Origin: Sphyrna mokarran
Taxonomy: Eukaryota
DNA: 64,000 nucleotides
Assembly: GCA_024679065.1 (NCBI GenBank)
Contig: JAGIQG010000022.1
Span: 5,952,001 to 6,016,000, forward strand
Direction: 5' to 3'
Made by a program: the position numbers and the translations under genes. Shown in pieces: positions 1,030 to 49,206 of the stretch; position 1 is the first letter of the stretch; every line of letters starts with the position of its first letter. The notes under the pieces are model-generated. The model made no database searches and was not told the DNA's origin. It worked only from the letters and a program-made list of their open reading frames with translations.

Positions 1030-1150
1030 ATTAAAGCAATAGGCTGCAGCTGCTGAAAATCTGAAATAAAAACAGAAGGTCCTGGGAAAAAGCTCAGCAG
1101 GATTGGCAGCATCTGTGGAGAGAGAAACAGTGTTAACATTCAAGTCTATG
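1030..1150. mobile_element. Penelope-type terminal repeat fragment
   Basis: gctgaaaatctgaaataaaaacagaa...ctcagcagg...ggcagcatctgtggagagagaaacag matches the copies at 10626, 11670 and 30145; shorter pieces at ~2355-2450 and ~4763-4815. Confidence 0.6.
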
Positions 1151-9807: not shown

Positions 9808-10190
9808 TTTGTTTGATTTGATTTGATTTATTAGTATTAGTATACAGTGAAAAGTATTATTTCCTGCGCGCTATGTAGGCAAAACATACCGTTCATAGAG
9901 ATGGAAACGAGAGAGAGTACAGAATGTAGTGTAACAGTTATAGCTAAGGTTGTAGAGAAAGATCAACTTAATGCAAAGTAGAGTCCATTCAAAAGTCTGA
10001 CAGCAACAAGGAAGAAGCTGTTCTTGAATCGATTGGTATGTGACCTCAGACTTTTGTATCTTTTTTTCCCGAAGGAAGAAGGTGGAAGAGAGAATGTCCG
10101 GGATGCATGGGGTCCTTAATGATGCTGGCTCTTTTGCCCAGACAGTGGGAAGTTAGACAGAGTCAATGGATGGGAGGCTGGTTTGTGTGG
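9808..10190 (-). mobile_element. Rex/Babar-type LINE 3' end
   Basis: Reverse complement matches 62085-62492, including the (TTTGA)n tail. Confidence 0.85.
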
Positions 10191-10625
10191 AGTTGCAGAT
10201 TTCCTTTCTGTAAAGTGTCTCCTGACCATTGCTCCCAGGCTGGTTCTGCTCTTGGGGTTAATCTCAGTGACCTGCTTTCCATATTGCTTGTTTTATAACA
10301 TGTCGCTATCAGAAATGCTCCGAGAATTCGTTTCCCAGATGTTCAGTGAAAGAGGGGTAATATTTTGAAAGCTGAAAAAAATATCTGGAGCACAAAGGAG
10401 TCAAACTGCCTATAAATCAACCTTCCCTTCAGACTTGGCCCCGGTTAGTTGGAATTCAGACAATCGAATCTTATTATGGACAGGATTCAGGATTGTGAAA
10501 GAACAGTGTAGGGTAACAAAGCTGACGACTGGACACAAGCACGGCAATATTTAAGAGTTTAAATGAGTTTTTAAAAAGGTTTACAATCAGCAGCTGAAAC
10601 AATGTGTTAATTTAGTGCATCAAGT

Positions 10626-10813
10626 AATAAAAGCAAATAATTACTGCGGATGCTGGAATCTGAAAAGAGAAAACGCTGGAAAATCTCAGCGGGTCTGGCA
10701 GTATCTGGAAGGAGAGAAAAGAGCTGATGTTTCGAGTCCAGATGATCCTTTGTCAAAGCTCTTTTCTCTCCAGATCTGCTGAGATTTTCCAGCATTCTAT
10801 CTTTGGGTTTCTA
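10626..10813. mobile_element. Penelope-type inverted terminal repeat remnant with probable target-site duplication
   Basis: Internal inverted arms (ctggaaaatctcagc...gctgagattttccag); flanked by tgcatcaagt (10616-10625) and tgcatcaggt (10814-10823). Confidence 0.7.
10711..10771 (-). ncRNA. Decayed minimal type-I hammerhead ribozyme (U3-A8 core variant)
   Basis: Minus strand reads GGAGAGAAAAGAGCU-UUGACAA-A-GGAUC-AUCUG-GACUC-GAAAC-AUC-AGCUCUUUUCUCUCC: stem I, core, stem II, GAAA and an NUH triplet in hammerhead order. Confidence 0.55.
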
Positions 10814-11669
10814 TGCATCAGGTGTTAGTGCCGAATGAATATCTTCCCTACCTGTGTTGTAGGGGAGTTAAGAATTTAACAATACGAACTGAAGTTTCCT
10901 CTCAGTGATCCAGCTGGGAATGGCATCACCGGCGTTAACTTATTTTGATTTGAGCAAATGCAACATAATGGTACCCAGATTCTTGAGCAAGGCGTGACCA
11001 CTTGGTGCTGACTCAGAGAACAGCCCCTGTTTAAGACTCTGACATGAGAGGTGTCTTCATACTGCCCGCTCGGTGCTGATCTTAAACCACTTGGCAACAA
11101 CGTTGAGAGTTTCGGGTTGAATCCAGGAGCCAAGTTACAGTTCGAGAGAAACGATGCGAGGACCAAGTCTCTGAGAACAGCTCACCATCAACCTGGAGTG
11201 TTAATGATAGAGATTGGCGGCGAGATTTAACTGACCCGCAGAGATACTGAAATGTTAGCAGTGTGTGTGGGACACTGTGACCCGTGCCCTCAACAGATTG
11301 AAATGTTAATTGTTGCGGCAGTAACCAGGTTTGCAGAAGTTTAATCACAAACCTCCCCTGTCAATACTGAGATGATTCGTTTAACCAGTGAACAAAACAA
11401 AGCGTTCAAAACCTTGTGTAAAAATTCTCCCATTTGTATTTTTATTCCCGGTGGGATTATCCTGTGCGTTCGCGATCAGAAGAGGATTTCAGGAAAGAAA
11501 GTACATCCACTTTTCGGAACTCACACCCAGAATTTTTAATACCCAATGAATTACTTCTAAAATACCGTCGTATTATTGGGAGATTGCAAGCCAGAAAGGC
11601 ACAGCAGGATCCCACAAGCTGAAATGAAATCATTGATAACCGCATGCTGCTGAATGAGGGATAGGATTT

Positions 11670-11808
11670 GCTTTCACAAAAGATCATCTGGACTCGAGAC
11701 GTCAGCTTTTTTCTCCCCTTACAGATGCTGCCAGACCTGCTGAGATTTTCCAGCATTTTCTCTTTTGGTTTCAGATTCCAGCATTTGCAGGAATTTGCAT
11801 TTATTTTG
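11670..11808 (+). mobile_element. Penelope-type terminal repeat with mutated hammerhead core
   Basis: gct-ttcacaa-aagatcatctggactc-gagacgtc-agct followed by the same body as the 10.7 kb copy; lies inside an antisense Deu-type SINE remnant. Confidence 0.65.
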
Positions 11809-11940
11809 TATAGGCATTGCCGCCCCCTCCCCCCCCCGCCCCCGGCCCCGGGCTAAATTCCCGATAAGTTTAACGCGAGGCTAATCCATGCAATTGTGAT
11901 TGTAAACACAATAACATTTTCACCCTCAGCATTTCAGCAT

Positions 11941-12190
11941 TTTATTTGTCACAGATAGACTTACATTAACACCGCAGTGGAATTACTGTGCAGTTCCCCT
12001 GGTCGCCATACTCCGTCGCCTGTTTGGGTATAGTGAGGGAGAATTTAACACGGCCAATGTACCTAACCAACATGTCTTTCGTACTGGGGGAGGAAACCGG
12101 AGTACCCGGAAGAAACCCACGCAGACACGGGGAGAATGTGCAGACTCCACACAGACAGTGAACCGGAACCAGGAATCGAACCCGGGTCCC
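11941..12190 (-). mobile_element. V-SINE variant (tail ...cttacttgtgactaataaa type)
   Basis: Reverse complement has B box gggttcgattcc, the V-domain-like core and the same tail as 20880-21134 and 28895-29143. Confidence 0.85.
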
Positions 12191-14498
12191 ATAAGTTGCA
12201 GTGGAGCCTACAGTGTTCCAGTGTTGTGCAGAATGTTTAAAAATACCTGGTTTGGGTAGCAGTGAGCGTTCGTTGTAACGCAAAATCGGCTTCTGAAAGC
12301 TTTAAAAAGGGAGATATTGTAGGTTTATTTGAAGTGCTTTCATTTCTGATTGGACAATAATCTACCAAAGTAGATTTGTAAACACAGGATCAACTTCAGT
12401 GAGTTTGCAAAATGAAGCTGGTCTCCGGATAGAGAAGCAAGGGTTAGACCCCCTGTCACAATCACTGCCGTGAAACCAGAAAAGGATTATAACAAATAAC
12501 ATCTCATTATAGGAAAAATTTACAAATTGATTAAACGTCTCATTTAGTTGTGAATTTCGATATGCGTCTCAGTTATGAGCTGAATTGTCACTGACACAAT
12601 TCCAGGCACCATTTAGTTTCTACACTAAACGATATTTTCACATCCAGAATTGAAGAGGGAAAATTTGGGTGAGCAGGAAAATGAATACATTACATTGCGT
12701 TGAAAACCCCGATGTGGTTCTGATCAAATTAAGTTCCCAATGCAGTCGCTGCTGCTAATGCAAATAAATAATCCCTGGTCTGATAACTTTTTTTAACCAA
12801 GATACCGCCTCACGAAAAATGCAGGCCAAAAAAAAGTCAACCCAACAATTGTGCTTTTTCCACTGAGATTTCTCAACCTCCCCCTCCCCCGCCTTGCTAA
12901 AAATAATCAGCCCCCGCCCATCTTAAAGTGAGTAAGTGAAGGTGAGTGGATCAAATCAGAAAGAGTTCGAATAAACTGAACACAAATTACACTGAAATGT
13001 CTTCACATTCACTTTCCTCGGGACATCCAGTCAAGGGAATGACTTGTAATAAGGCGAAAACATCCTGAAACGGGACAAATATGTCTTAAGGTTGGCAGGT
13101 TAGTGCTGGAATCAATTCTTTTCCACAACCATGTCTCATTCCCTCCCAGCTTCTAGGTGTTTCGCCTATTTTGAGGTTTGCTGTAAGTGGCTGCCCACTC
13201 TCTCGCGAAAGGAAAGGTTTGAAATGAACATTGGCGACTCAACTGTGGAGAATAACGGTTTGACAGCTGATCAGATATCCTTACTACTGGCCTGGACTTT
13301 TAATCCTTCACTTCCAGTGGCTGAACGCCAAGGGTTTCAAAGATTGCCAAGTCAATACTGTATCTAAATCAAATTCTCATTCACAACCAACTCATTTCTT
13401 CCATGTTGCCAACTTCCCCCACTCTCCCCTCCGAAAAAAGCTTTAGATATTTCTAATCAAATTAATTTTGTTTTAAATCAGCCAGAGGCTTTATGAGCCA
13501 GTTCCAAGGAAGTCTCTAACCACAAGCTCCTTACAGCGCCCTCTCAATTCACTGAAGGTTCGGGTATTTGCTGAATTAGAGGCTTTGTGTTAGGGATACC
13601 TGCGAGCGGGGGACACAGAAGGTTCACAGGTTGCGTGAGAGCCTGGTTTTGGTTCAAATCTTATTCATCAGAAGTCAAAGACAGAGAGGAAACATCAGGA
13701 GTTGGATCCCCTCGCCGTCTCTTGTTATCACGGCGCTACATTTTATAGCCCTTTAACTCTTCATCCGCCTGAATCACCTCTATCAATATTATTATGCGAT
13801 ATATGTTATTCTGATTGAATGTCGGATGAAGCTAATTTTATTTCTAAAGTTCTTGATTACTCGGCGAGAAGATAATCATCTCTGCCTGTCCTCATAACAA
13901 CCTCAACTCGACTCCATTCACACCCAACAAGCCCATACCGCGAGCAATACAAAGATAGAGTCATCAATGAAAACAAAACCAGCTCAGAATGGAAAATGCT
14001 TCGTCTGACTGCCCTGAATCATTTTTTATCAGCTTCCCTAACCCCCGGCGCTTTCATTTCGCTGTATCAGTGGGTGAAACATATTTGAAAGTTATCTTAT
14101 TATCTACAGAAATTGAGACAAAATAAATCTTAATCACGGATTTCAGCCTGTTACGAACGAGTAGGCGCTGCCTCACATCTGGTTGGATGTAAATGATTGA
14201 GTGTTTCACCAGTTCAGTGGTGCGGAATTGTTGCTCTAACATTGGGAACGGGCCGCGCGATTCTCCGTGTAGAAGTTACAGAAGGTCTGGGATTTTCTAA
14301 CAGGAGCTAATAATACCCAATAATTAAAATATGAATTGAAATGATCCTAAATTATTTCAGAAACCCCGCTGGACAGTTTGCTTGGTAAAGCGTCCGAGAA
14401 CCCTGCTTATATTTAATACACAACTCTCTCAACATAGAGTCCAATTTATAATTTATATTGGGTTACTTATTGGAATCTTCATTTGAAATTTTTATTTC

Positions 14499-14890
14499 GA
14501 AGATACAAAAGTCTGAGGTCACGTACCAACCGACTCAATGGATCAACCTCGCACTAAATTGATCTTTCTTTACATCCTAGCTGTGACTGTAATTTGATTT
14601 GATTTATTATTGTCACATGTGTTAGTATACAATGAAAAGTATTGTTCCTTGCGCACGATACAGACAAAACATACCGCTCATAGAGAAGGAAAGAAGAGAG
14701 TGCAAAATGTGCAGTTATAGCTGGGGTGTAGAGAAAGATCAACTTAATGCAAGGTAGGTCCTTTCAAAAATCTGCACTCTCCTTTCCTTCTCTATGTACG
14801 GTATGCTTTGTCTGTATAGCACGCAAGAAACAATTCTTTTCACAGTATACTATGACGTGTGGAAATAATAAACCAAATCAAATCAAATTT
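14499..14890. mobile_element. Two nested Rex/Babar 3' ends in opposite orientation
   Basis: + strand piece 14499-14593 resumes at ~14771; a - strand copy occupies ~14594-14770. Confidence 0.75.
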
Positions 14891-15007
14891 CTGTTTAAAA
14901 TCCGCTGGTTCACTATATTCCCAGCGCAGTTATTATATAAACAGGTTTCACACGTTTAAGCTTCAATTAAAAGCTTGAAAAGCTAAACTCCTAAATATAA
15001 GGGGAAC

Positions 15008-15175
15008 ATCCAAAGATTAGGTTGATCGGCCGTGGAAAATTGCCCCTTAGTGTCGGGGGAGTAGTAGGGTAGATATGTGGGGTTACGGGCATACTGTCTG
15101 GGTGGGAATGTGGTCAATGCAGGCTCGATGGGCCAAATGGCCTCCTCCTGCACTCTCGGGACTCTATGATTCTAT
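15008..15175 (+). mobile_element. HE1-like SINE 3' half
   Basis: tccaaagat...aaattgccccttagtgtc...gggccaaatggcctcctcctgcact...ctatgattcta, matching 7780-7950. Confidence 0.8.
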
Positions 15176-16285
15176 CTCATTCACTTTGAAGAGGGAGTCT
15201 GGCGCTGCTAAAGACTGATGCTCTTTAAACTCTTCCTTTCATTGTTCAAAGCGATACAAGGAGATCGCCAATAACAATCCCCAAGGATGTCTTTCGGGCG
15301 ACATGTAGAAATGCGAAGAGATTAATCAAAAATTGCAATTGTTTTTTTGAACACTCGACCTCAGCCCGGCGTGTTCTGTATTCTCAGCTCCGGTTTCCAC
15401 GGTAGGGAGGCTGGTTGTTTGGAGCAGACACCGCATCGGGAATAAACAGAACCAGGGGTGGCCGGCCGTGGCGTCAAGCCATTCACCTCCGGAATGTTTC
15501 AGAAAATGTTCACCAGTATGTGAAAATAACATTTATATTACAACCAATTTAAGATAAATTACTTGTGTTTTTACACCTGAGAGTAGGCAGTATTCTAAAT
15601 AAATTCTGAAAGTGTGAATGAAATTAGATTGAGTGGAACACAGCGGCAAAATTTATCTTCCCATCTCCCGGACACGGGCAGGGTAAGAATTCTATTTATT
15701 GGAGCCGATTTGCCACCTGGAAGAGTTCATTCAACAGGAGGGATCCCCATTCACCACAAGCTGCCTCGGTGGGATTGGATATGACTTTTCCCCTCACGGA
15801 GGGGAAAGTGAAGAATATATTGTAAACGGGGACCTCACTTACTGCAGAGGCCATCAACCACTGAGGCTGGGGTGGGAGAGGGGCATTCACCAGAGTGGTC
15901 TTTTCACCGTGGGGACAATAGAAAACATCATGTTTATTAATCAGAAACTCATCTCAGATATTAGAGGGAACTCCTAAAGGGAATCTCCTTCGCAGCAGAG
16001 TATCTGGTTGACTGGGTAGGGTCTCACTGACAAGAGAGGATCTTCTTTAATGAGAATATATGGACTGGTGACCACTCAGTCCATGATGCGAGAATCATCA
16101 CCCAGTAGATAGGTTCTCATACAAAAAATTGTAAACAATTCATGAGAAAGGATCTCAAAACACCAGAGAAGATCTAATTCAATAAAGAGATCTCAGTAAA
16201 CTGTTGAATCCCAGTCTCTGGAGATGATTTCATATTTGGTGAAAATTTCACTGAGATCATTCACTGAGTGAGATTAGTATTAAAT

Positions 16286-16465
16286 AAGATTTCACTGGAT
16301 GAGATTTCACTGCATGAGATTTCATTGGATGGGATTTCACTGGATGAGATTTCATTGGATGGGATTTCACTGGATGAGATTTCATTGGATGGGATTTCAC
16401 TGGATGAGATTTCATTGGATGGGATTTCACTGGATTAGATTGCACTGGATGAGATTGCCCTGAAT
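16286..16465. repeat. 15-bp minisatellite, 12 units, with a 30-bp higher-order core
   Basis: Units GRGATTTCAYTGGAT; gagatttcattggat and gggatttcactggat alternate four times over 16316-16435. Confidence 0.95.
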
Positions 16466-17482
16466 TTTCTGATTTTCTGATTGCAGCAGCTTTTAACTAT
16501 TCATTAGTCAGGAACAGAAATTCCTATATTGATCAGATTTTTAATCAAGAACATTTGGCAATATGTTGCTAGAATCAACTCCCTGTCCAACAATCCCATG
16601 AATTACAGGAAACATAAAATGTGTACGGATATGTGCTGATATGTAAACAAGTCCCAAACAACTGTGATTGAGCAGCATTGTAAAAGACATGTTATATTGA
16701 TGATATGACAGGAGACTTGTTCATCTTGCATTGATATCAGATGAACAGTATGTTAATGCCCTGGTTGATTATACTAACTGTATAGTGATGGTACACTAAT
16801 GTTACGTGAACAGTCCATTATTAGTATATGAATGATGTGTTCATGACTGATGAATCATAAAGAAATGCTTCATTTGAAAATTCTCGAAAGAAATTTCATT
16901 TACACAAAGATAGAAAATGATCAAAAATCAAATTTACTAAACTTTTTCCTTATTTATATTTCCTGTCCTATGAATGTATATTGTTGAATTCTGTGCTAGC
17001 TGCTGAACCTCACAGGGTAAGTTATTTACTTGGTCCAATAGCCCAGTTGATTTAGTTGTCCTATTGTGATACCTGTTTTTGTAATTGAGTCTATTGAAAT
17101 ATAAATAAGAAATATTGAATTGACTAGAGTCAAGAATTTAGGGAATGTTGCCTGTCCATGTCTAGAGTTTGTTTTAGTCACTGTAATTTGCTTTTCCCAG
17201 AACTACCAAAGCCTCCTCCTCAGTTGGACATCTGGTGTAGGTTCTTCTTATATTGGTTTTCCCATTTCACAGATGGTCAGGTATAGGTTGTTTGAAACTT
17301 TTGGCAGACTCATGATGTGTGATCATAAGCTGCAATCCCCAATTTGTCGCTGGAAATGGACATTATCTATCTCTTTAAATGAACACAGTTATCAGTCCTA
17401 ACCTCTTCCCTGTGTATAGATACAAGCCACTGTCTCCTTGCTAGACAAAGAAACCAGACCCAATCTTTTCTCTGGCCACAGA

Positions 17483-30144: not shown

Positions 30145-30360
30145 AAAAATAAAACGCCGCAGTTGATGGAAATCTGAAATGAAAAGAGAACAGATGATGC
30201 TAAAAAGGTCTGCTGGCATCTGTGGGCGGGGAAGGGTTAATGTTTCGAGTCCAATGATTTCTTCAGAAATAAGCTCAAAATGTGTTAACTCTATTTTTTT
30301 TCTCTCCACAGACATTCCAAATGCGGCTGAATATTTCCAACATTTTCTGTTTTTATCTCA
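30145..30360. mobile_element. Penelope-type inverted repeat remnant inserted in a Deu-type SINE tail
   Basis: Flanked by aaaatgtacttcact (30130-30144) and aaaatgacttcact (30361-30374); the host SINE sequence continues on both sides. Confidence 0.7.
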
Positions 30361-30431
30361 AAAATGACTTCACTGGTTGGGAAGCATTTTGAGATGTCAG
30401 GTGGTCTGGAGTTTCTTTAACTTGACTTGGG

Positions 30432-32998
30432 ACTGTCATTGTTATCGTTATCATACATAAACACTGTCCTATCAGCGTCATTGTACACAAATATTGTACA
30501 CAACATGTACACAAACGCTGTACATGAATATTGTATTATGAGTCAATGTATACAAACACTGTACAATCACTGTTATTGTACACAAGCACTGTACGCAAAC
30601 ACTACAATCAGCGTCAATATACACAAACCACTGTACTATTATTGTTATTATACACAAGCATTGTATTATCAACATCATTGTACATAAACACAATTATTAC
30701 TGTTATTGTACATAAGCACAGTACACAAGCACTACTATCAGCATCCATGTACACAAGTACTGCGCTATCGCTTGTTATTGTACACAAGCACTATATACAA
30801 ATATGGTATCATCAGCATCATTGTACACAAACACTGTACTATTACTATTAATGTACACAAACTCTGCACTATCAGTGTCATTGTACATTGTCAATATATA
30901 CAATCACAGAACTATTGCTGTTATTGTACAGTAATTTTATTTGTTCATTTATGGGACATGGGTCTCACTATATGGTAACATTCATTGATCATCCGTAGTT
31001 GAGTTTAGACTGAGTAGCTTTCTAGGCCATTTCACTGTCATTATACAAAAATACTGTACTGTCATTATTCACTGCCATTGCACACACTTTGCTATCACTG
31101 TCAGTACACACAAACACTACTTTTACTGTTTTTACACAAACAGCACAATATCACTGATAGTATATGCCAACACTGTTCTTTCATTTTCCCTGTACATAAA
31201 CACTGTACCATTAGTATCATTATACAATGTCACTGTACACACTCTTATTACTGTCAGTATACACAAACACAACTATTACTGTTGTGTATTATCACTGACA
31301 CACTACACTGTTATTATACACAAACATCTACTGTCCCTGTATACAAGCACTATACTTTAACTGTCACTGTACCTAAACACTGTAATATTACTGTCATTAT
31401 GCAATGTCATTGCATGCAAACACTGTATTATCACTCTATGCTGTAATTACACACAAATATTGTATTATCATTGTCACTGTATACAAACACTGTACTGCTG
31501 CAGCCATTGTATACCACCATTACACAATGTAATCATTCACATTTACAATTACAGTCATATATACAAACACTATAGTCACAGTTACTTTACACAAACACTG
31601 TAATCACTGTCATTGTACACAAATACTATTACTGTCACAGCACTTTGTAATTAAACACAAATATTGTACACAAACATTGCATTGTCACTACACTTTCACT
31701 ATCACTGTACACAAACAATATTATCATTGTCCACTGTACCCTGTCATCATACACAAACACTGTACTATCATTGTCACTGTATACAAACACTGTATTATTA
31801 CTGTCACTGTCAATTGTCATTGTACACAAGTACTGTACTATTACTGTCACTGTATGCAAGCACTAGTGTCACTGTAACTACATGCAAATACTACTATCAC
31901 TGTCACTATATACAAACTGAACTTTCACTGTCTTTCTACAGTGCCATTGTACACAAATACTGTATGTAGACATGGTACTTTCACTGTCACTACATGTAAA
32001 TGTTGTACTATGACTGTCATTGTACACAAACAATGTACTATCATTATCATTGTACAATGTAATTATACACAAGCACTGTATTATCACTGTCACTATATAA
32101 AATGCTCTACTATCACAGTAATCATACACAAATATTGTACTATCACTGCCATTATACAATACGATCACATATAAGCACTATACTGTCCTTGTCTCTATAC
32201 ACTGTTGTTAAATACAAACATTGAATTCTCACAATGATTATACAAAAATAATATACTATCACAATCACTGTAATTATAAACACTATACTATCACTGTCAT
32301 TTATGCTGCCATTATACACAATCATGTATTATCACAGCCACCAAATACTGCCAAAGTACACAAATAACATACTATCAATATCATTGTACAATGCCATTAC
32401 ACACAAGCATTGTACTGCCACTGTACACAAACACTGTTCTATTACCACCATCACCATACACAAAAGTTGTACTACCACCACCATTCTACACAAATTATCA
32501 TACCAATCTATTAATATACAAACACTGTACTATCAGTGTCAATAAATACAAGCACTGTGCTATGACTTATTATACACAAACACTGTACTATCACTGTCAC
32601 TGTATACAAATGTTGTACTATCAATACTGTTCTACACAGATGCTGTTATGTCAGGATCATTATAAACTAACCTATGCTATCATTGACAAACAGCATAATA
32701 TCAGTGTCATTATACACAAATACTGCACTATCACTTTATACCATCACTTTATGTCTTTACACTCTTTCATTGTACACATTGTACGATCTTAGTTATTATA
32801 CATAAACTCAGTCCTATAACAGGCACTATACACAAATGCTGTGCTGTCCCCTCCACTGTGAATACTATTACATCTGTCATTTTACAGAAATGATGTGTTA
32901 TCACTGCCCTGATACACAAACTCTGTATTATATTATCATTGTATGGAAACACTGTTTTATCACTGTCATGACACACAAACACAGTAATGTCACTATTC
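30432..32998. repeat. Long degenerate ~29-30 bp minisatellite (domain A)
   Basis: Consensus close to TTGTACACAAACACTGTACTATCACTGTCA, repeated with divergence; short SINE-derived interruption at ~30940-31035. Confidence 0.9.
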
Positions 32999-33012
32999 AC
33001 ACACACACACAC

Positions 33013-33825
33013 TCACTGCATGCTGTCACTATACACACTGTACTCAGACTGTCACTATGCACACACTGTACTCTGATAGTCACTATGCACACTCTGTGCT
33101 CTGTCACAATACACATACCGTACTATCACTATACACACACTGTACTCTGATTATCACTATGCACACAACTGTACTCTGACTGTCAGTATGCACAGATTGT
33201 ACTCTGACTGTTGCTATTCACACATTGTACTACCACTATGCACATGGTACTCTGTCAGTATGCACATACTGTACACTATCAGTAAGCATACACTGTATTC
33301 TGTCAGTATGCACACATTGTATTCTGACTGTCACTATGTGCACACTGTACTCTGTCACAATGCACACGCTGTATTATCATTGTATGCACACTGTACTCTG
33401 TCACTACATACACTGTACTGTCACTTACACACATTGTACTCTGACTATCATTATGGACACTATATTCTGTCACTATATACACATTGTATTCTGATTGTCA
33501 CTATACACACATTGTATTCTGACTGTTACTATGCACACACTGTACTCTGAATGTCACTATGCACACACTGCATTTTATTACTGTACACACACTGTCCTCT
33601 GACTGTCAGTATGCACACAGTGTATACTGACTGTCACTATACATACATTACCCTGACTGTCACAATGCATGCACTGTAATCTGACTACTATTATACACGC
33701 ACTGTGCTGTCACTATACACACACTGCACTTCACAATATACACGCTGTACTCTGACTGTTACTATGCACACACTGTACTCTGACTGTCAGTATACACACT
33801 GTACTCTGACTGTCAGTATGCATAA
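33013..33825. repeat. Degenerate ~28 bp minisatellite (domain B)
   Basis: Consensus close to CACTATGCACACACTGTACTCTGACTGT. Confidence 0.9.
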
Positions 33826-34134
33826 CAATAATGTATAATCTGTCATTACATACAAAGGCTCTGCTATCACTGCCAATAGAATCTCGGCTTCCTGAAATGA
33901 CAATTTAATTGCTCATGGGTTTTGTTGAATGTTATAAATGTTACGGTTTCATTTAACACCTCGGCCGTAATTTTGAGCGTTTTAAGTTTTCTTAAGGAAA
34001 CAGGTGTCAAAGCGGAACTTTCTAACTGGGCGATAGGATGGAGTAGGTGTCCGATACGGTGAATCTTGGGGGCAGGAGAATGTGATTCTGAGCAGGGACC
34101 GTGTGGCGCTCGACACGTTACAAACTGATCGGCC

Positions 34135-34370
34135 GAGCGGAGAAGAGAAAGGAGAAGGGGCGAGAAAGAGGGACGCAGAAGCACACAGAGAGCGAGAGGG
34201 GAGAGAGGCGCGCAGGGAGACGGAGGGATAGAGTCAGAGGGAGGAAGAAGGGGAAGATACAGAAGAAGAGAAATAATGAGAGGATAAGAAAAGGGGGGAA
34301 TAGATAGGAATAGAAAAGAGGAAAGGTAGAAAAGATAGATACACACAGAGAGGGAGGGGGGGGGGTGCAC
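34135..34370. repeat. Purine-rich (GA) low-complexity tract
   Basis: Almost entirely A/G on the + strand; a similar tract lies at ~57960-58280. Confidence 0.8.
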
Positions 34371-35089
34371 GGGGAGGCAGGCCGGGGCGACAGGGCGAGA
34401 GCAAACTTCACGTTGAACCGCGGTTCCTGAGTCTTTGTCGATCTCAATGTTGTGAGTGGACAAAGCTCCAGCAGCATTGCTGACTCAAGGTACAGACACG
34501 AAGGACGCGGCGGAACAAATCACAGCCACTCTCTTCCCAGAACATAGGGGGAAAGGCGAGTTAAATTGCTGGTTTTGCATTGATGGTGTACATGTCACAT
34601 GAAAAAACATGAAGGATTTTGACAGCTCTTAAACTGCCTGGCGCCATGGCCAGTGTCTCCGCTAAAAATAGGCCGAAATGGGGCGCAAAATAGAAAATGA
34701 AAATGGGTATCAGGAGGGATTGGAGAGAGAGAAGGAAGGAGAAGGGGGTAAGTTTAAATTAGCACTTGTCTTAGGGAGGAGGGAGAGCCGAAAACTTAAT
34801 CACGATTCGGAACAATCACAAAACAAGAAATGAGGTGAACTTCAATGTACAGAAGCTGAAATATGGAACAGAGCAGGAAAATAAATAAGTGCAGAGATAA
34901 AAGGATTGACAAAAACAAGAGAAAATTATATCAAGGATCAATAAAAGATATTGCCGAGGAAGCGGCTCCCAGTGTGGAGATGAACTGCCCAGAGCTCCCT
35001 TAGCTCCTCATTGCACCCAGAGATAAAATTAGTCCGTTATACCTACGGAGTTTAATGATTGGATTCGTTTTGTGGTTCTACTGCCGTTG

Positions 35090-36575
35090 CACACACATAA
35101 TATCACCTAAACACACTATAGACACTCATATACACACAAACACACTCATAAACACACCCACCCACGTATAGACTTTCACACACATTCACATACATAGGAA
35201 CACATCCATATACACAAATAAACATTTATATACCAAACTCTCACACATTCATATACACACACTTCTATGTACAAACACTTCTATGTACAAACACATTCAG
35301 GCATTCATTCTGACACAAACACATCATACACACATGGCACGGTAGCACAGCGGTTAGCGCTGCTAGGAGCCCCAGGTTCAATTTTGGCCTTGGGTGATTG
35401 TGTGGAGTTTGCACGTTCTCCCTGTGTCTGCGTGGGTTTTTTCAGATGCTTCTGTTTCCTCCCACACTCCAAAGATGGGTAGGTTAGGTGGGTTAGCTAT
35501 ACTGAGTTGCCCCTTAGTGCTAGGAGGATTAACAAGATAAATATGTGTGGTCGTGAGAATAGGATCTGGGTATGATTGTCAATGCAGACTCAATGGGCCA
35601 GAATGGCCTCCTTCTACACTGTATGGATCCTATGTTTCTTACTCTCATACAAACACACTCATCACACCTATGCAGAGATATTCCCATATACAGATTCTCA
35701 CATGCTCTCATATAGACACAAACACATACATTCTCACACAAACACACTAATATACACACTTTCACAAATACACTCATATATACACAAACATACACATATG
35801 CCCACACTCTCATGCAAACACACTCACATATATACAAAAACACATGCGTGTAAACACACTTATATACACACTCTCACAAATACTCTTGTATATACAAAAA
35901 TATTCATATGCCCACACATTCATGCAAGCACACTCATATGCACACTGTCTCACATTTATATACACAGAGACATGTCCACATACACACACTCATATACACA
36001 CAAATGCGCACACAATCCACTAATATATTATATATATATAAAATGACATGCACATTAATACATAGGAACATGTTCACATATACATACACGCAGTCAATAT
36101 GTATTCTTATGCACAAACAGAAAACACACTTGTATATGCACTCACATACATGTTCTCTCACACACATGCTCACTTTGGCAGACACACTGGCATACACACA
36201 AACACACATTCACTGTCAAACTACAGGAACTCACTTTGACAAATGCACACATATACACAAAAACACATAACACACACTCATACACACCAGCATACAATCA
36301 CCACAAGTGCACACTCACACTCAATGACTTAATTTCATACAACACACCCATATTCTCACAACATACATAACCCACTCATTCTTAGACACAAAATATATTC
36401 ACACAAAACATATTCTCACATACAGACTCAGTCGCATACAAACTCCACATTCACCCATTAAAACACATAACACTCATTCTCATACACACTCTGTCACTCA
36501 TACACAACACCCATTTATAAGTACATGCACAACAGAAACACATATACATTCACATATGCACATAAAACACATGTA
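35090..36575. repeat. Degenerate CA/TA-rich simple repeat region
   Basis: Long interrupted (CA)n/(TA)n run, split by the SINE at 35335-35640. Confidence 0.9.
35335..35640 (+). mobile_element. HE1-like V-SINE
   Basis: ggcacggtagcacagcggttagc head, V-domain-like core, tail gggccagaatggcctccttctacactgta. Confidence 0.9.
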
Positions 36576-39500
36576 TTTTAATTTTTCCAGCTTTCTAACT
36601 ATTTTAATTCTAGTAAGAAATTTAAATTCAGAAGACAATGTGCAATTATATACAATAGAATGGACAATTAGGCTGAGGTGGAGTAACTATAGGAAAAAAA
36701 ACAAAAAGTTTTTATAGCTCTTATCCATCTACTTTGGTGAATTAAACTAAATATTAATATAAATCCACTGGGATTTTAAACACTGATATGTTACTGAATA
36801 GCCCTTTGAATGCAGCTCAACACCACCGTATGTGCTCTATAATTATTTGACAAAATAATAAAATGCCTGCCAACTTTGACATTTGTAGAGGAAAATACAA
36901 AGATCGTTGATTTTTTTTAAATTCACATTTCCCATTCATGAAAAAGCAACAGTATCTACTCTCCATGGGAGTTCAGAAAAGTTGTGTCTCCAAATGAGCA
37001 CTGCACATGTCAGTTTAATATACCCACAGGAACCAGAGAAACCTGGAAATGATGGGACTGGTCCAGAGGTATATGATTTCTGGCATGGATATAGATGTAT
37101 ATTAATAAATCGATTTAATATACTGGCACACGAGCTTGCAATGTATATGCAGCTGTATGTATTCACCATACGCATTGGCTACTGTGGATGCATTAAGATG
37201 GTACATTACCAAATCAGATGATAGTTTCTGCTCTATAAATGCATCATATATAATCCAGTAACCGAGGAAATAAACGGCAAAAAGAAGCATAAAGAGGACA
37301 GATTAAAAGTTCATTGATACACCGTTGAGTTTAGAGGTTGGGGTTGTCCTTGCTGCTTTTTCAAATAAACATCGGGTAATTAAATAAATATATTCATAAT
37401 TCCAGAATGCAGAGAGGTTTGCAAATTCCATCGAAGTGTCAACTGACATGCAACAAAATCTGCTAACTTGATTTCCGTAAAGGTGCATGTGTTTTTATCC
37501 ATACAGCTATATAAACCTTTCTGAAAATGGGATACATTGTCCTTCAAATTTGGGAGCTTAATGTACCAACAGTAACCAAAGAGTTATCTCCAAATACTCA
37601 AGCTGACCCAGAGAAGACATTTATATCATTCAGTAACCTGACCATCTGGTGTATTTGGGACGTGATGACTGGAACTTCCACCGCCCACAAAGGTTAAATA
37701 CTGAAAGCACGGTGATTGAATCAAATACTCGGGCGCTTAACAACTAAACCACGGGAAGTTAGCTGTTTAGTGAGGACCCTAAACCATTTTATCTACACTC
37801 TGGTCGGCAGCCGCTCCGCTTTAGCTCAGAATCTGGATTATTCTAATTGTGTTAGTTTGGTTCTTGGAAAGATAACAAAATTGTATTTTAAATTGCATTT
37901 TATTCATTAGCAGATTTAATTGTAAGTCTCCGTTTAACCTGAAACATTTCTGTACCTGTTAAAATCTACTTCCAAAATTAAACCCTCTTCCAAATCAGTC
38001 TGTATAACTGTCTAGTTAAGATTTTTAACTAGAATTGGCCTAACAATCTATGGGTGGGACTTTGCGAGTAATAAATTCTCCAGAAAAAAATTGTTTGGTA
38101 AAGAAGGATTTACAAAAAAAAATCCAAAATTAACATCCTGAGAAATTAGTCATTTAATACGAAGTATTTCAACTTCCCGTCAATAGCTTTATTTCCTATA
38201 GATGTTGGGTCGTATTTTACAAATGCTGTACATTTGTTTTCTGCTAATTTAAAAACAGCAGACCGAGTATTTTTTTTACAATCTTTGTACATGTTTTCCC
38301 ACTGTCCAAGTACAACTTTGAACCAAACTTTTCCCTGAACATTGAAGGAAGCACAAAACCATGTGAGTAACGCCCTGAGTTGGGTGCCAGTGCCACTAAG
38401 TTCTGTGGTGGGCTATCTCGCCAGACCATGATCAATTTTAGGTGAGGATTAATTAGGTTGAATAAAAACCTCAGATATCGGACCCCGCCTCCCCCACTGG
38501 GCTGTTTTGGTGAGTGATTGCGTGGTGGAAGTACGTGGGTATCTTTAGACTGCTGGTTATCTCACAAAGCTGGGCTGGTAATCAGCAAAAAGTACCTGTA
38601 TATATTTTGATTAAACGTTTGGGTTTAGACTGGAGGAGTGGATAAAGGAACAGTCTCGGAGACAATGACCTAGTATAAATGGAGAGAGATTGGCGTTTTA
38701 TTGTTAGCAGGCATTGGGAGATGCTCGTGGCGCCAGTCACACTATCTCGTCAACAGATAGAGAATAAAGACAAAAGCAGCATCGCACCTTGTTCGATAGA
38801 GACGCAGATGACTATCTCCCTCTCGCACTCTGGCGACGGTCAGATACTCACTCCGGCTCAGCCGTCTTGTTTTTAGCAGATCACAGATTCGAAACACGGG
38901 AAGGGGAGATTTAATTATCCAGAAATTGTACAATTTCCCGATATCGAATTATAAAACACGGGGAATAATAGAGAGCGCTTTCCCTGGCCGGGAAATACTA
39001 ATCCTGACGCTATCACTGTTTCGGTTTCCCGATGTTTCGAGTGGGAAGAATCAGATTTGACATTAAATTAACGGGTTCACGTAAAGATTGCGGGTTCTCA
39101 GATTTGTATTCTAGAGTCAGTGCTAATGAACTTGTTTTTTTTAAAAGAAAGATGGAGCTTTCGGTCCAGACCATTGAAAAAGGCAGATGTCAGAATCTTG
39201 GGAAAGAAGAATATTTAAACTTTTCCTTTTCTGAGATGGAAGGTGTGTGTGTGTGTGTGTGTGATTTTCTTTCTTGTTCAGCGGGGTGAGGATACTCTGG
39301 GCACAGAGCGATCCCAGACTTGCGCCGATGGAAGAGCTAGCGACTGGAGAGAGCCGTGACCGAGCGGAGCGCATCTTTACCCGGCTCCCTGAAGCTGCAA
39401 ATATATAAAGCTAACCCAATCACCCAAACATCTCAGCGGTTCTCCCCTGCTAAGGTTCGGCAGATGATTTTTGATTTCCATGCATTCACCGGAGGAGATA

Positions 39501-41199: not shown

Positions 41200-41784
41200 A
41201 GGTTTTAGCGGCTCCAGGTGTTTTGCGGTTCGCCGTGGAGTCTCTGTCCGGGACCGGGCACTCTTAATCCGGGACGCGGGGAGGATGGAGACCGCTTGTT
41301 GGGGGGGGTGGGGGGGGGAGGGGGGAGGGGAGGAGGAAGAAGGACGGGGGGGGGAAATGCCTTCTGTCATTGGTTAATATTTAATTTTGTTGACATGTTT
41401 TCAAAGAGCGATTCCAGTGATGCTTACTGTACGTTGAAGCTTCCGACACCTTTTTCCCCACCCCTCCTCTCTCTTAACTCATCCATCCTGGCCTCATTGT
41501 CAAAACCCCGCCTTTCCAGCCTCACAATTGGTCAGGACGCGTAAAATCACCAATCAACGGGGCGGCTCATTAGCAGGACTGAGGCGAAAGGAGATCACTG
41601 CAGGAAGGATCTGTGTGTGTGTGTGTATGTGTGTGTGTGTGTCACACACACAGAGATTGCCGATCTGTACTTGTTCTTCAAGGAGATGGTGTAAGAGAAG
41701 ATCCGGCGAGAGCGCTTCCAACAGAAATCTTCTCCCCACCCTCTTCCCCCCAACCCCCCTCTCTTTTTTTTACCGGATGCACCG
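41200..41784 (+). promoter_or_regulatory. TBX2: TBX2 promoter and 5' leader (CpG-rich, CCAAT and GC boxes)
   Basis: ATTGG at ~41369 and ~41527; CCAAT plus GGGCGG at ~41551-41566; G-rich tract 41299-41355; directly upstream of the ATG. TSS not determinable from sequence. Confidence 0.7.
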
Positions 41785-42158
41785 ATGAGAGAACCAGTTT
41801 TAGCGACGACTATCATGGCTTATCATCCGTTCCACGCTCACCGGGCCGCGGATTTCCCCATGAGCACGTTCTTGGCCGCCCAGCCTTCCTTCTTCCCCGC
41901 CCTGGCTCTTCCGCCGAGCGGGGCGGCTGCTCTCTCGCTGCCCGGGGCTCTGGGCAAACCGTTGACGGACCCCAATATAGCCGAGGCGGGGATCCGCGTC
42001 TCTAGCCTGGGGCACCAGCCGGCACACCTGCGGCCCCTCAAGAGCCTGGAACCGGAGGATGAGGTCGAGGACGACCCCAAAGTGAACCTGGAAGCTAAGG
42101 ATCTGTGGGACCAGTTCCACAAAGTCGGCACCGAAATGGTTATTACCAAGTCTGGGAG
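41785..42158 (+). CDS. TBX2: T-box transcription factor TBX2, coding exon 1
   Basis: [44 protein letters not shown]...[34 protein letters not shown]; donor AG/gtacgc at 42159, phase 2. Confidence 0.98.
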
Positions 42159-43234
42159 GTACGCATCTCGCTGAAGACAGTCCCCAGTTCATGCGAGCAG
42201 TGTTTGCCACATTCTTATTATTGCTTTAACTTCCTCAACTCGTTTGTGTATCTTTCTTGTTTTTTTCAAAAACACAAAACTGCAATTAAGAATCAGTCAT
42301 CTGTTAAATGATTTCTAGCGAATTTGTGAAGTCCTTAAGAGAGGCCAGTTGACAAGATGCCAAAGGCAGAATTGGATCTGCCCGTGAAATGCGAGCGCTT
42401 TAATACGAACTCCTTTATTAAAGGGCTGAATGGTAACTCCTTAAGGTTGTGTTTTCTGCTCGAGATTCGGATTCATGTCTCTGTATTTCAAATCCATAGA
42501 AAGAGGCCGGGCAAAGCTTGTCGACATTTTCGTCGCTTTGCAATCAGTTTAACATGAAATGTATTAGTTTCCACCTAAGTCTTTTCTTTTGGTAACACAA
42601 CTTCCGAAAACGTCTCTTTTTAAATTATAACTATCGCTCCGCGGCAAACTGCAATGCCCTCTTTTTTTCATGTGTGTGGAAGGAATCCTACTTTGGCCCC
42701 TTAGTTCTCCCTAGCGCTGTCTGTCTCGCTACAGAAGTTTGTGAGTTGGAAGCGATAGGTCTGTTGCTAATTATAACCTTTGATAGTAATCGGCCGATGT
42801 CTCTTCGCTGGAAGGGGCAGAACAGGGCGCAAAAATAAAATAAAAATCAGTTCCCTGCAATGAGATTGTACAACTTTATAAAGTGATCAAACTTTGCGTC
42901 AGTTGAGGGGGTGGGGGCTGGGGGAGACCTGTCCCCGCTTACCCATTTGAACACAATGATTCTTGTTCATTCTCCAATTCCAATCCGGGATAATCGAAAT
43001 GTGATGTGAATTAGAGAAATTAGAAATATTATATCTTTGGCTAAAATATGATTTGAGGAATAAAGTGGAAGCAATCTCAGTTTAGTTATAAAAAGGAAGT
43101 GTTGTTTGAGAAACCTTTAAGAGTTCAGTGCATAGCTGAGCTGGGTGAGAATAATATTTTCAACTGCACCATTTGTCGTTTTTTGACTGATAAAATTATC
43201 TTTCTCACCATTAGCACGTGTCCCCGTATATTAA

Positions 43235-43567
<333 letters not shown>

Positions 43568-45896
43568 TAATTTTGACTGTCCTTTTTTTAAATTTTAGTA
43601 AGTATTTGGGTGAGGGAAGACAGTTCCCTTCTGCTTTCCATTGTTAACAATCTTGTTGCTAAATTCCCTTTGTGTCGGTGAGTATATCCTTGGCCCCGTT
43701 CCTGGGAATAGACTTCAAAAATAACTGCCCTGTGAGGGATGTGTTAGGGATTTGGGAAAATTGACTCGCCCGTGGGCGAGCGAGTCTCTGGGAAAATAAA
43801 TAAAATGCTTTAAAGGCTTCAGAAATACTAGGCCACTTTTTTGTCCAGTATGGATGCCTACAAACTGCAGCAGAAAGTTTAACCTTAATTATCCTGTATA
43901 AGATTGATACGTGTCCATTAATATAATATTTATAGAACACATTAAACCCAAATCCCCTCTAAAACAGTACAGTAATCATTTTACTTTGGAATCAAAATGG
44001 TTTAGGGTTAAGATAAAGGCAAATCAGATCAAATGTCTGCTGAGTGTACACCTCTGAATTCTGCTGACTTCCAATATATGCGCCCCTGTTACAGGAGAAT
44101 CCTTTGAAATCCAGGCCATCAGATTTATTTATTATCCCACATTCAGGAATGAGTTTGGACGCAAATTGTACTAAAAGCCGAAGGACATTAATAATCTGCG
44201 GTAGATACTGGGCCGAGGTTAAGAATTTTATAATTATGCCTTTATATATTACTATTAGAGGCCTTTGTTTTTTTCTCTCGCTGTTTTCTAACGTGGGGTC
44301 AGGCTGAAGTGTGTTAATGGTATGAGTTGTGAAAAGCAGGTCAGGCTTTGTGGCGTCAGGGAGGAGAGAGAGAGAGAGAGAAGAGCAGAGAGTGCTGGCT
44401 AGTTCGAAAGAGCCTGACTGCTGAAAGGACGGTCTCTCTCTGCAGCCAGTGGAACTCGGAAAGAATCAGTCCAGCAGTGATGTTTTAGAGGTGGACAGGG
44501 GCCAGTGGAGAACAATTTGGGACCATTTATTTGCGAGGGGAAATACATGTTTTTAATGCAGTGTCTGGGAAACTTGATTGAAGGTTGGAGGAATAGCACT
44601 TGGAGGTAAAAGCAGCCATTATATGCAGCTTGCAGAAAGCGCCCTGAAGCACAGAGCATTCGACCTAGATCAGCAAGCGTGAAAAAAAGAACGCCGCTCG
44701 CTTTTACTGACAATATACTCAAAATTAGAATAAAAAGTGAAGACAGGCAGATTGTAAGATCCATCAAGAGATGAGAAAAATAGCCCGGTTCAGTGGGCTG
44801 TTACAATCTTTTGTGTGATTAGATTGCAAACGCCATTGACATTATTAATAATAGAAGCTGATATTCATTTTTGAAACGTGTATCTCGGATATCTCCAGGC
44901 TGAAGACTCCAATGTAACGTTGGAGGAATTGTAGCTGGGAACAGTTCAGGGGAATTTTCGGAGACTCAGTGGTTTGTCTGGCTGATCTGAGCTTTTGAGT
45001 GGCTTGGCTCTCGTTTATTTGCACGCCTGAGCGAGGAAGCACTGTAACATTTTATATTATATAAAGGCAGGACAGAGTTGAAATGACGCATCAATGCCCA
45101 GATCCAGTGTCTATCTTTTATGTGTCAGAGACAATGCCTCAGTTTCGCTTTCAGCGTGTCCCAGGATATTTGGAAATAAATGTCAGGGTGATTTTTCTTC
45201 CTCCCCGCCCCGGTGTTCTTTTCAAACAGATTCTCATCCACGAACCTCGTCAGAGATGTGTTTTAATAATAATAAAAACATCGTTTAAAAAAATGAATCT
45301 AGCCGGGGAAATGAGGGAGGCGATCGAAGTCACATTACAGCAGGAAACTGGTGACCTCAACATTCCATGTCTGTAATACGGGTCAAGATCAAACATTTCA
45401 AAGCACCTCCAGCCCAGAAGAGGCCGTTTGGAATTCCCATTTACAAAGTAAAATAAAATAAATTGGGCTGATTTTTTATTGTTTAATATCATTCGGTGCA
45501 AGACGCAAATTATAATTAGAATGTATTGTATAATTAATCTTATTCATTAGTTTGAAAGTACTATTTATATTTATCTACTCATGTACACGCGCGGTTCCTA
45601 TTCAATGCACGCAGCAATGTTTGCAGTTAACAAGCAGGGCAGATTAACCTTTCGATTTTTGCTTGTGTACTGAATTATTGCTAAACTACATTAGGGCAAG
45701 ATGCATGTCCACTTTCCCTGGCCTTCTCCTAAATGTATGAGGAAGGTGAAGGGATGGGGTGTGGGGGGGGGGGGGGGGGGGGAGAATCACCAGAACTGAC
45801 CTGTTTTCACTGATTCCTGGTCCCAGATATAGGAGGCAAACCGCGGGCTGCCCTTCTGTAGAACTAACCTGAGCGTTGTTCCCCTTTTTTCCTTAG

Positions 45897-46070
<174 letters not shown>

Positions 46071-47852
46071 TAATCCCGGGAGCTAACTGGACTCACTCAT
46101 GCACTGAGTCGGGGCACAAACAATTCATAACCGTCCCGCCATATTAATGGTTTACTTCATTCATTCAAATGTTTGGAGATAGTTTGGAGATAATCACGAC
46201 AGCATTTCCAAATAAACATTTCAATGCAGTCAAATGCTGCACTGAATTCAAAGCAACATTATTTTGGCGGGCGGCCGAGATGTCCCTGAATGCAAACAGC
46301 AAAGAGAATCGGTGCCTCACACTCCTGATAATTACAAGCTGCAGTTTGAAGTGGGGATTCGTGTTTTAAAAGTGGTAACACGAGTAGAAAGGTTTTCTTT
46401 ATAAAATGATATTGAGGGAAAATGGAATGATTTGCATCAGGATAAGGATACGCACGGAACTATAAAAGTGCTTTTAAATAATGCTTGCTTAAATAATAAA
46501 ATCTTTGCACCAGATGCGGGGAGATCGCGCGAGGAAGTTAGTCACCCTCAGCCTGGCCTGTGTGAAAACTGGGGGAGGGGTAGCGACGAGTGGTTAAAGT
46601 TTAGATACACGGGGACTTTATCTGCCGTGTAAAAGGCAGTGGAGCAAAATCTGGATGGAAACAGGTTCCACCAAGGTATTAGATTGTGGGTAAAACGGCT
46701 GGTGATAATCCAGCGTTAGGGTAGCGATCACCGCATTCCTGTAACTATCTCTCTGTCGCTTGATACTTTGGGTCAAGTTGGGTTGGGAGGTGGGGGTGGG
46801 GACGAGGGGAAGGAGGGGGTTGTTTATCAACGTTTAACACTTTACAGTGAGAATCCAAATCGATCACTGAATATTCTGATCGAAGCGGAACCGGGGCTTT
46901 ACTGATCTTGGCTGACAGTACCAGCCGGAACGTTGAAAGATGAAATTAAAGATATAATCAGGAGAATATTGTGGCAAACCTGCTTCCTTTTAATAATGAA
47001 AATAGTGATTTTATTTAATATTGTTTCCCAAATAAGCAAATAGACCCAATTAACAAAGAGGCTTAATTCCACTTGGACTGGTGAGATTTCAGGTGTCATT
47101 TCTGATGCCCCTTTAAATACACTAGCTTTCTCCTGCAAAGCGTGGCTGATGAATAATGGATACAGCACAGCAAGGGAGGCAGACTTGTCGGTTAGCTGAT
47201 ATCATATACCATAATTTGTATGAAGTATTCATAACCCGATCACGTAACTATGCTGTTAAAAACCTTTTTAGAAGCGCTCCATAACCTTCTTATTGGCGAG
47301 TAAGATTAAATATCTCAACGCCACACGGAGAGAAGTCCTGATTTATCCAACACTGACTCAACGCATCTCTTTGAATTTGCCTTGTTAACAGAGATGCGAC
47401 AAGGACAATAGAGAATCAGTATCACTCATTTGTCTCCGCCTTTATGCAAGGAAAGGGAGGGGCAGTTGGATTCGTTAATATCTTTTCATATCTTGATATT
47501 CAAATCAAACATTTTGGCTGAGTGTATTCATAGAATTTGTATCGAATTTCCTTCACACCTGGCCTCAGATTGTATCAGAGAATCCTCCAGACAAACGCAG
47601 ACGAACTGAAGCCAATAAAACTGCGGGTGTAGTTAAGGATTGTAGGTTGTCCCAAAGCTCAAAGCAGCTCGCTTGTAATGTCGAAAACATTATCAAAAAG
47701 CACCAGTGTCCACGAATTTGCACATGACCGTCCCTCATAAACACAGCGGGATAAATACTGACCAGAACACAGTTCAGTAAAATCATCTTTTTTTTTGCCT
47801 CGTCCCTCAAATCCAGTGCTGTTTCATTTTATTTTGCTGCTCCCACAATTAA

Positions 47853-48005
<153 letters not shown>

Positions 48006-48405
48006 TAAAATCATTCAACAGCCGACTCAGAGCATTTAGAAATAATTTCTTAAGGGAAGAGAGTTGGTTTTCTCCCATTACCCTGGGTGATTTCCCATCT
48101 GGATAGTTCTGAAAGTGAATTGCGCCGGCACAGACAGCCGGAATAGATGGGAATCTGGCCGTTTCTCTGTTGGATGTGTGGGTTAACAGTGTGCACCTCC
48201 TGGCGGCCAGTAACGGAATGGCACCAGAGATTGTTGGGAATATTGTGTGGGGAGAGAGGGCTGTTTTAATTTTAACTTTTAATATCTTCATATCGTAATT
48301 TTACTCTGATTTATATTTAAAGTAGGAATTAAAATGTGTCATTTCTCAAATAACAACAGTTTAAAGCCCGCCATCGGTCTCATTGTAATGCTGTTTGATT
48401 TTCAG

Positions 48406-48575
48406 AAAACAGCTTTCTCTCCCCTCCTTGCGGGTTTACGAAGATCATTGCAAAGGTGACCGAGATGGTGGCGATTCTGACGCCTCCTCCAGCGACCAGC
48501 CGCCGGCCAGGGAGTCTCTGCGCTCGCCCTTAGTTGTGGACCCCGTTTCTCTGCAATTCAGCCAAGTATCCAAAG
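48406..48575 (+). CDS. TBX2: TBX2 coding exon 5
   Basis: Acceptor ttcag; [41 protein letters not shown]... (TBX2-type); donor G/gtgaga, phase 1. Confidence 0.95.
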
Positions 48576-48904
48576 GTGAGAGATAGGGAGTGAGGGAGTG
48601 GGAGCGGGAGGGAGGCGGCAGGGTCTGATCCCAATCCAGAGATCAAGGGCGAGCGGTTTGTTGACCGCATGGCGCCCCCCAGGTAAATCATGAGGCCAGT
48701 GGCTTAACCTTTAAAGCTTGCTGTCATTATTTGCTCCAGTAAGTTCTCATAAATGAGGGCAGGAGACACCGAAACACAGGAGAAGATCAACTTTGAAAAG
48801 GACTAAAAGACTTAATGAATATAAAATCAGTACATTACCCTGAAACTCAATAGGAACTCTTTAAACCAAGTAAATAACTCTCTGCTACTTCTGTGGAATG
48901 TATT

Positions 48905-49206
48905 TGGAGATAAGAGGAGGAACTTCTCGCAGAGAGGGCGGTGAATTTATGGAACTCGCTGCCCCATAGCATTGTGGAGTCTGAATCGTTGAACGGGATC
49001 AAGAGGGAAATAGATATTTTCCTAATTTAAAAAGGAGAAAGAGGGATATGGGATACAGGTGGGGAGCTGGATTTGAGATCAGGGCGAGATCAGCCATGAT
49101 CTGATTGAATTTACCGGGTAAAGTTTTACAACACCAATTCTACATCATGAATTTACCGGAGCAGGGCTGAATTTACCTACTTCTGCTCCTCATTCCCATG
49201 TTCCTA
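48905..49206 (+). mobile_element. CR1 3' end in TBX2 intron 5
   Basis: gtgaatttatggaactcgctgccccatagc (V.LWNSLP) and tail gatcagccatgatctgattgaat...ctacttctgctcct. Confidence 0.85.

Follow-up and report, generated by a model that had tools for sequence, protein, structure and literature searches.

A decayed hammerhead motif with a U3-A8 core in a high-copy repeat, probably the terminal repeat of a Penelope-like element

The window analysed here, a stretch of 64,000 nucleotides, carries a degenerate minimal hammerhead ribozyme motif (copy A) whose sequence is a member of a high-copy repeat. The repeat, which is abundant, probably represents the terminal repeat (pLTR) of a Penelope-like element (PLE). 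We consider it probable that copy A is a decayed, 5'-truncated insertion of such a pLTR, with a hammerhead that has U3-A8, the inferred norm of its family, in its core and is predicted to cut only as a dimer. An earlier note, made from the sequence alone, read copy A correctly as a relic that resembles the minimal hammerheads (min-HHRs) of PLEs and is likely inactive. The copy is laid out as follows.

10722..10760, minus strand: predicted minimal type I hammerhead motif of copy A, from sequence inspection and a descriptor search, with family letters from public contigs.
10662..10721, minus strand: sense arm of copy A, made up of the repeat body that follows the hammerhead; compared with other copies it lacks 5 nt near 10663.
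10627..10661, minus strand: 3' extension of about 35 nt, likely the PLE 'tail', on the sense arm only, from comparison of the arms.
10757..10811, plus strand: inverted, 5'-truncated second arm of copy A, from an inverted-repeat search, alignment and contigs.

On the minus strand, the core of copy A runs U3 (10756), U4, G5, A6, C7, A8 (10751) and A9, with one additional A (10749) between A9 and position 10.1. Stem II (10748-10744/10738-10734) is made up of a G-C pair, a G-U pair, an A.C mismatch, a U-A pair and a C-G pair, so that four of its five positions are paired (at least 4 bp being sought), or five of five with the family-majority letter at 10746; the G10.1-C11.1 pair is present as G10748-C10734. 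Thereafter come G12, A13, A14, A15.1, C15.2, A16.2 (10728), U16.1 and C17 (10726), and the predicted cut site falls between 10726 and 10725. The native stem I of about 4 bp (10760-10757/10725-10722) is contained in a perfect 15-bp inverted repeat (10711-10725/10757-10771). Every element of the minus-strand layout claimed in the earlier note, namely stem I, UUGACAA, an extra A and a stem II with one mismatch, is present. When the core is compared with that of the PLE min-HHRs, the Watson-Crick pair at 3-8, G12 A13 A14 A15.1, U16.1 and H17 are all found, and the palindrome at 15.1-16.1 for a dimeric stem III is absent, copy A having ACAU, which is not self-complementary. The min-HHR traits given as conserved by Cervera and De la Pena 2014 (PMC4209133) are an extra nucleotide at 9/10.1, G10.1-C11.1 and a palindromic 15.2-16.2; the copy A family has the first two, and the palindrome is its majority state.

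A relaxed minimal-hammerhead descriptor, in which C-G, U-A or U.G was accepted at 3-8, was scanned over both strands of the window and matched once, at copy A; the chance expectation is 0.033 matches per window, and 2 of 60 dinucleotide-matched simulations contained one. The hammerhead-shaped fold of copy A, at -24.5 kcal/mol, lies 0.6 kcal/mol above the minimum-energy fold (-25.1 kcal/mol) and has a probability of 0.08; the stem II pairs have probabilities of 0-0.36. Rfam gave no hammerhead family at E<=10 for the 8-14 kb region or for the 52-nt core; hence the earlier remark that standard searches, like a strict CUGANGA pattern, miss this family was right.

Further copies in the window bear on how the motif is to be read.

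11670..11806, plus strand: copy B, of the same family, beginning at stem I and including the tail; forms a 97-nt inverted repeat with copy A at 90%.
30148..30360, minus strand: copy C, of a related older family, with a decayed hammerhead at 30266-30232 that has a C3-G8 core and the extra A.
1030..1145, minus strand: copy D, a truncated, diverged relative in which the motif survives in its 3' half only, followed by the downstream body.

The copy B hammerhead (11670-11707) keeps U3-A8 and the ACGU palindrome and has lesions at C5, A10.1 and G14; it departs from the PLE min-HHR core at positions 5 and 14. The nearest relative of copy A thus lies on the other strand and is without G5, G10.1 and A14. 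The earlier note had stated that the copy at 11670-11706 shares UU.ACAA, keeps ACGUC and has G5 and A14 changed, all of which we confirm, adding the lesion at A10.1 that it did not list; its view that both copies look inactivated is upheld by ACAU and the stem II change in copy A and by the three lesions in copy B. Copies A and B stand head to head, 910 nt apart, and both have a minority A at the third position of stem II (10746 and 11683), which hints at a common origin or a subfamily. In copy C an inverted, tail-less arm (30271-30360, plus strand) lies beside the tailed arm, and its core indicates that canonical C3-G8 and U3-A8 families coexist in this genome.

Fifteen chance open reading frames (ORFs) from unnamed contigs, used only as read-outs of other repeat copies, extend the comparison; the protein searches with chance translations gave 2 matches, 14 matches and 0 of 13 candidates. 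One of them (P0006) encodes both U3 and A8, and two more (P0002 and P0008) encode A8. G16.2 is read in nine of the ten same-family copies, the query itself having carried G16.2, and the inverted arm occurs in 9 of 15, including P0002 and P0008, a count that is biased because the arm supplies the ATG. Upstream residues vary among these ORFs. Five others (P0010 and P0013-P0016) come from another repeat family, related to the first, whose sequence differs just past the cleavage triplet.

The family at large was surveyed by aligning public contigs on 10450-10950, with one run from each of four organisms (A, B, D and F; 4 of 24 listed runs). The alignments comprised 17,032, 15,573, 10,765 and 10,138 contigs respectively, almost all of them on 10637-10810, and the flanks of the copy A repeat had low, single-locus depth. 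These contig counts are not copy numbers, and the family letters are pooled, depth-weighted shares per position; aligning to copy A favours similar alleles, with C3-G8 sister families such as copy C falling outside the 80% cut. At 10746, the third position of stem II, the stem-completing G makes up 72, 84, 87 and 95% of the depth in organisms A, B, D and F, and at 10728 G16.2 makes up 59, 45, 51 and 74%, a majority in three of the four runs. With these shares, the majority letters match the family consensus predicted in the earlier note. The CpG at C11.1-G12 (10733/10734) decays symmetrically (24/20, 21/17, 19/15 and 7/7%), and 10729, the partner of 10728, shows decay of 27, 13, 13 and 8%. The A16.2 share of 26-55% exceeds this opposite-strand decay of its CpG (8-27%) and is two to four times commoner in three runs, an excess that may reflect either reference bias or an A16.2 subfamily. 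The majority state across the family comprises the other core letters, G10.1-C11.1, five stem II pairs and a self-complementary ACGU.

At U3 (10756) and A8 (10751), no alternative letter appears among the differences listed, the lowest listed share being 11.3%; as the list includes differences found in single contigs and appears to be ranked by share, alternatives at the two positions would lie below about 11%. No group of loose ends stands at 10750 or 10755 among the six largest per run, where one would be expected if the contigs had been clipped before A8 or U3. Instead, among the six largest groups of each run, 1,013, 640, 381 and 264 contigs (organisms A, B, D and F) have loose ends at 10757-10761, beyond U3. 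Hence, we infer that U3-A8 is the usual core pair in this repeat family, and the earlier proposal that the subfamily uses U3-A8 agrees both with these contigs and with the readings of P0006, P0002 and P0008.

It is nonetheless conceivable, if unlikely in our judgement, that the family is PLE-derived and its hammerhead was already non-functional or unselected in the master element, U3 and A8 having been reached by drift, hitchhiking or some other constraint, such as an overlapping reading frame, a splice acceptor or an RT-binding structure. Both C3U and G8A are synonymous in one frame that has no stop over the full length of the copy B segment, but this frame shows no sign of coding, its matches being only chance ORFs without Pfam domains. 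The six largest loose-end groups of each of the four runs include none at the cut site, which fits the copying of uncleaved RNA. Cleavage is described as dispensable in vitro for insertion of the anole PLE (PMC11167929), and Naiad PLEs as proliferating without canonical hammerheads (PMC8557442). Against a non-functional master stands the retention, as the majority state, of the other core letters, G10.1-C11.1, the five stem II pairs and ACGU, as does the recurrence in Schistosoma PLEs of a double change at 3-8 that restores the Watson-Crick pair (PMC4209133).

The assignment of the repeat to the PLEs draws on its layout. In published PLE insertions the 5' truncation is strong, the 5' end bears an inverted copy that is itself 5'-truncated, and a tail of 30-40 bp is found at one end only (PMC8557442). 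Here, an inverted 5'-truncated copy lies next to the 5' end in both copies A and C, and a tail of about 35 nt is present on the sense arm of copy A and lacking on its inverted arm, with the same arrangement in copy C. The repeat is also dispersed, high-copy and strongly 5'-truncated (10,138-17,032 contigs per run). A remnant of an RT or GIY-YIG domain was sought with Pfam in 24 frames over 6.0-15.3 kb and 28.5-31.8 kb, with none found (three weak, irrelevant matches), so that PLE membership rests on layout; the 15 chance ORFs likewise gave no Pfam domain. Six scans for DNA patterns, run over collections of metagenomes, prokaryote genomes and viruses, all yielded 0 loci. As regards a spliceosomal intron in the pLTR, a trait of PLEs, acceptor-like pyrimidine-CAG motifs were noticed in the sequence.

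At 10757-10761, on the 5' strand of stem I, hundreds of contigs per organism pass from the repeat into sequence that differs from one to the next, with a loose-end agreement of 0.34-0.38 at the stem I start, as against 0.55-0.6 where a continuation is shared. In three runs the dozen loose letters directly behind 10760 resemble one another, a hint that some upstream sequence is shared; on the hammerhead strand they look like a pyrimidine tract with CAG at its end, which may be a splice acceptor where helix I begins, an arrangement reported for Penelope of Drosophila virilis. Many copies seem to have their start no more than a few bases from stem I, with unrelated sequence before it. This could mean that the unit of about 130 nt is not the end of an autonomous PLE but a non-autonomous element of retrozyme or SINE type, moved in trans by PLE proteins, and the differing upstream residues of the chance ORFs and the lack of an ORF nearby point the same way. 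Moreover, pLTR-related non-LTR retrozymes have been reported in one chondrichthyan (bioRxiv 10.64898/2026.07.22.740005). We judge this quite unlikely: no tandem head-to-tail hammerhead units, a trait of non-LTR retrozymes, occur at the copy A locus; stem I is short, unlike that of the canonical retrozyme-type motifs described in PMC4209133; the similar letters behind 10760 suggest that upstream sequence may be shared; and strong 5' truncation is normal for PLEs (PMC8557442).

The second arm explains the exceptional stem I of copy A. Its first letters are the palindromic AGCT of stem I, from position 1.1 on; 14 nt are deleted within it, and it has no counterpart to the last 35 nt of the sense arm. 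At 10761 the depth falls to 2.1, 1.0, 0.8 and 0.5% of that at 10746 in organisms A, B, D and F, which indicates that the native stem I has about 4 bp and that the inverted arm created the 15-bp stem, a rare arrangement; the long stem had been attributed in part to the element's own inversion, and this holds. In the contig alignments, loose ends before 10663 accompany the 5-nt deletion of the sense arm, and a loose end behind 10811 in run X11 provides evidence for the tail. The right flank that follows 10776-10811 here follows it in contigs of organisms B and F as well (records 32 and 24; 35 letters lie within the repeat), so that the copy A insertion is older than their split from organism A, and an organism D contig contains a similar fold-back at another locus (record 16). 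The flank itself (10812-10950) is low-depth unique DNA that aligns at about 88-92% in organisms B and F; from there to about 11660 the sequence may be conserved non-coding DNA that lies upstream of a T-box gene.

The window is animal DNA, likely of a cartilaginous fish to judge by its types of repeat. The T-box gene, at 41695-53926 on the plus strand, is a multi-exon gene of the TBX2/TBX3 type (best solved-structure match TBX3, E 1e-56), which we take to be TBX2. The predicted fold of 10660-10806, at -64 kcal/mol with a z of -7.0, raises the question of whether the copy A locus was co-opted as a long RNA hairpin (miRNA-like or an editing substrate) or as a regulator of the TBX2/3-type gene 31 kb away. 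We hold this to be highly improbable. The inverted arm does sit at the same site in organisms B and F, and Rfam gave weak miRNA-precursor matches, but the inverted duplication fully explains the hairpin, its arms have drifted apart through the 14-nt and 5-nt deletions and several substitutions, and the same fold-back exists at the other locus in organism D. The Rfam miRNA and snoRNA matches all fall far below their gathering scores (30.4 vs 53.5 bits at best) and were rejected as reflecting the hairpin. Elsewhere in the window, a tRNA-derived SINE-like repeat, presumably of the HE1 type, occupies 11950-12195 on the minus strand, with related copies near 7-7.3, 9.1, 15 and 29 kb, and long CA/TA-rich, low-complexity, satellite-like tracts with strong GC skew fill 30400-36700.

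Under the preferred reading, that of a decayed pLTR insertion, the master element would have carried a dimer-competent U3-A8 ribozyme. In tandem transcripts of the element, two motifs would pair via ACGU, building stem III, and the paired dimer would cleave after C17, probably slowly and with the help of protein. Comparable behaviour is described for the minimal hammerheads of PLEs, in which stem III has no loop and slow cleavage takes place in dimers joined by the palindrome (PMC4209133), and in the Poseidon element PAc of Anolis carolinensis cleavage needs protein. Against this picture stand the finding that cleavage of PAc is unnecessary for insertion in vitro (PMC11167929) and the failure of eight of nine Xenopus retrozyme dimers to cleave (bioRxiv 10.64898/2026.07.22.740005). 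The RT of the element would then start in or beside the tail and copy back through a mostly uncleaved motif, and the lack of a large loose-end group at the cut site suggests that mostly uncleaved RNA was copied. The tailed end lies about 120 nt beyond the start of stem II, near the 111-118 nt at which the RT of the anole element starts (PMC11167929). We also considered that integrated copies mostly end at the cleavage site and found no support for this, the six largest groups per run in the four runs including none at 10725/10726.

The inverted arm likely formed when the end of the cDNA folded back on itself at the palindromic AGCT in stem I; that arm does start at 1.1, next to the cut site, but the palindrome makes such a fold-back equally possible. 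After insertion, CpG decay (G16.2 to A) and the stem II transition likely inactivated copy A, which would additionally be trapped as a monomeric hairpin. The U3-A8 pair itself likely arose from C3-G8 by two transitions, C7-G8 being a CpG; a U3.G8 core occurs in nature and is listed for Saccoglossus (PMC4209133).

The closest published parallel is provided by the Cercyon PLEs of Schistosoma mansoni, in which about 1,300 U3-A8 minimal hammerheads with an extra nucleotide are recorded by Cervera and De la Pena 2014 (PMC4209133). As described there, they share with the present family U3-A8 in place of C3-G8, the extra nucleotide at 9/10.1, a short helix I, the missing helix III loop, the palindromic 15.2-16.2, mostly single dispersed copies and close pairs on opposite strands. 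In contrast, the family reported here belongs to a vertebrate host (likely a cartilaginous fish), has an unrelated stem II and flanks, and has C at N7. No shark row is found among the rows examined of the Fig. S3 alignment in that study, and the present family and that of Schistosoma probably have independent origins. In its letters, the copy A motif most resembles the min-HHR of an Acropora digitifera Neptune element (PMC4209133, Fig. S3, Table S1), which likewise has the same letters in the 3-bp core of stem I, C7, the extra A, a stem II ending in CUC and a CGUC cleavage context followed by a U-rich tract, whereas its core is C3-G8 and its stem II has 4 bp; this may serve as a lead towards the Neptune clade. 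PAc of the anole (Frangieh et al. 2024, PMC11167929) is alike in having its hammerhead near the pLTR-ORF junction and unlike in its C3-G8 core and an ORF that starts at stem II, no such start codon or ORF being seen here.

Covariation of the 3-8 pair to U-A is also known from several natural hammerheads (Perreault et al. 2011, PMC3088659), and U3-A8 cores are active in vitro according to earlier work cited in that article; unlike those examples, the motif here is of the minimal dimer type and resides in a high-copy vertebrate repeat. Hence, the U3-A8 swap and its occurrence in PLEs are already published, and it is the vertebrate, likely shark, family of this kind that appears to be unreported: our literature search found no shark or vertebrate U3-A8 PLE family, though Lunse, Weinberg and Breaker 2017, on variants of PLE hammerheads, or the supplements of the 2026 retrozyme preprint, which surveyed one chondrichthyan, could already list one. 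The gain is incremental, since the swap in PLEs is in print and copy A is a relic.

Even so, Rfam-based or strict-core-based counts of ribozymes in shark genomes miss an abundant family, and the presence of U3-A8 beside C3-G8 relatives in one genome offers a ready comparison for testing selection on catalysis. The role of hammerheads in endonuclease-bearing PLEs has been called unclear (PMC8557442). We regard as evenly balanced the broader proposal that a shark PLE lineage independently fixed U3-A8, likely through a CpG-driven U3.G8 intermediate, and was then amplified to thousands of copies across several species. If true, this would be the first vertebrate example of its kind, invisible to Rfam and to CUGANGA searches, and it would be evidence from nature for selection on the catalytic fold of the PLE hammerhead, even with most integrated copies derived from uncleaved RNA.
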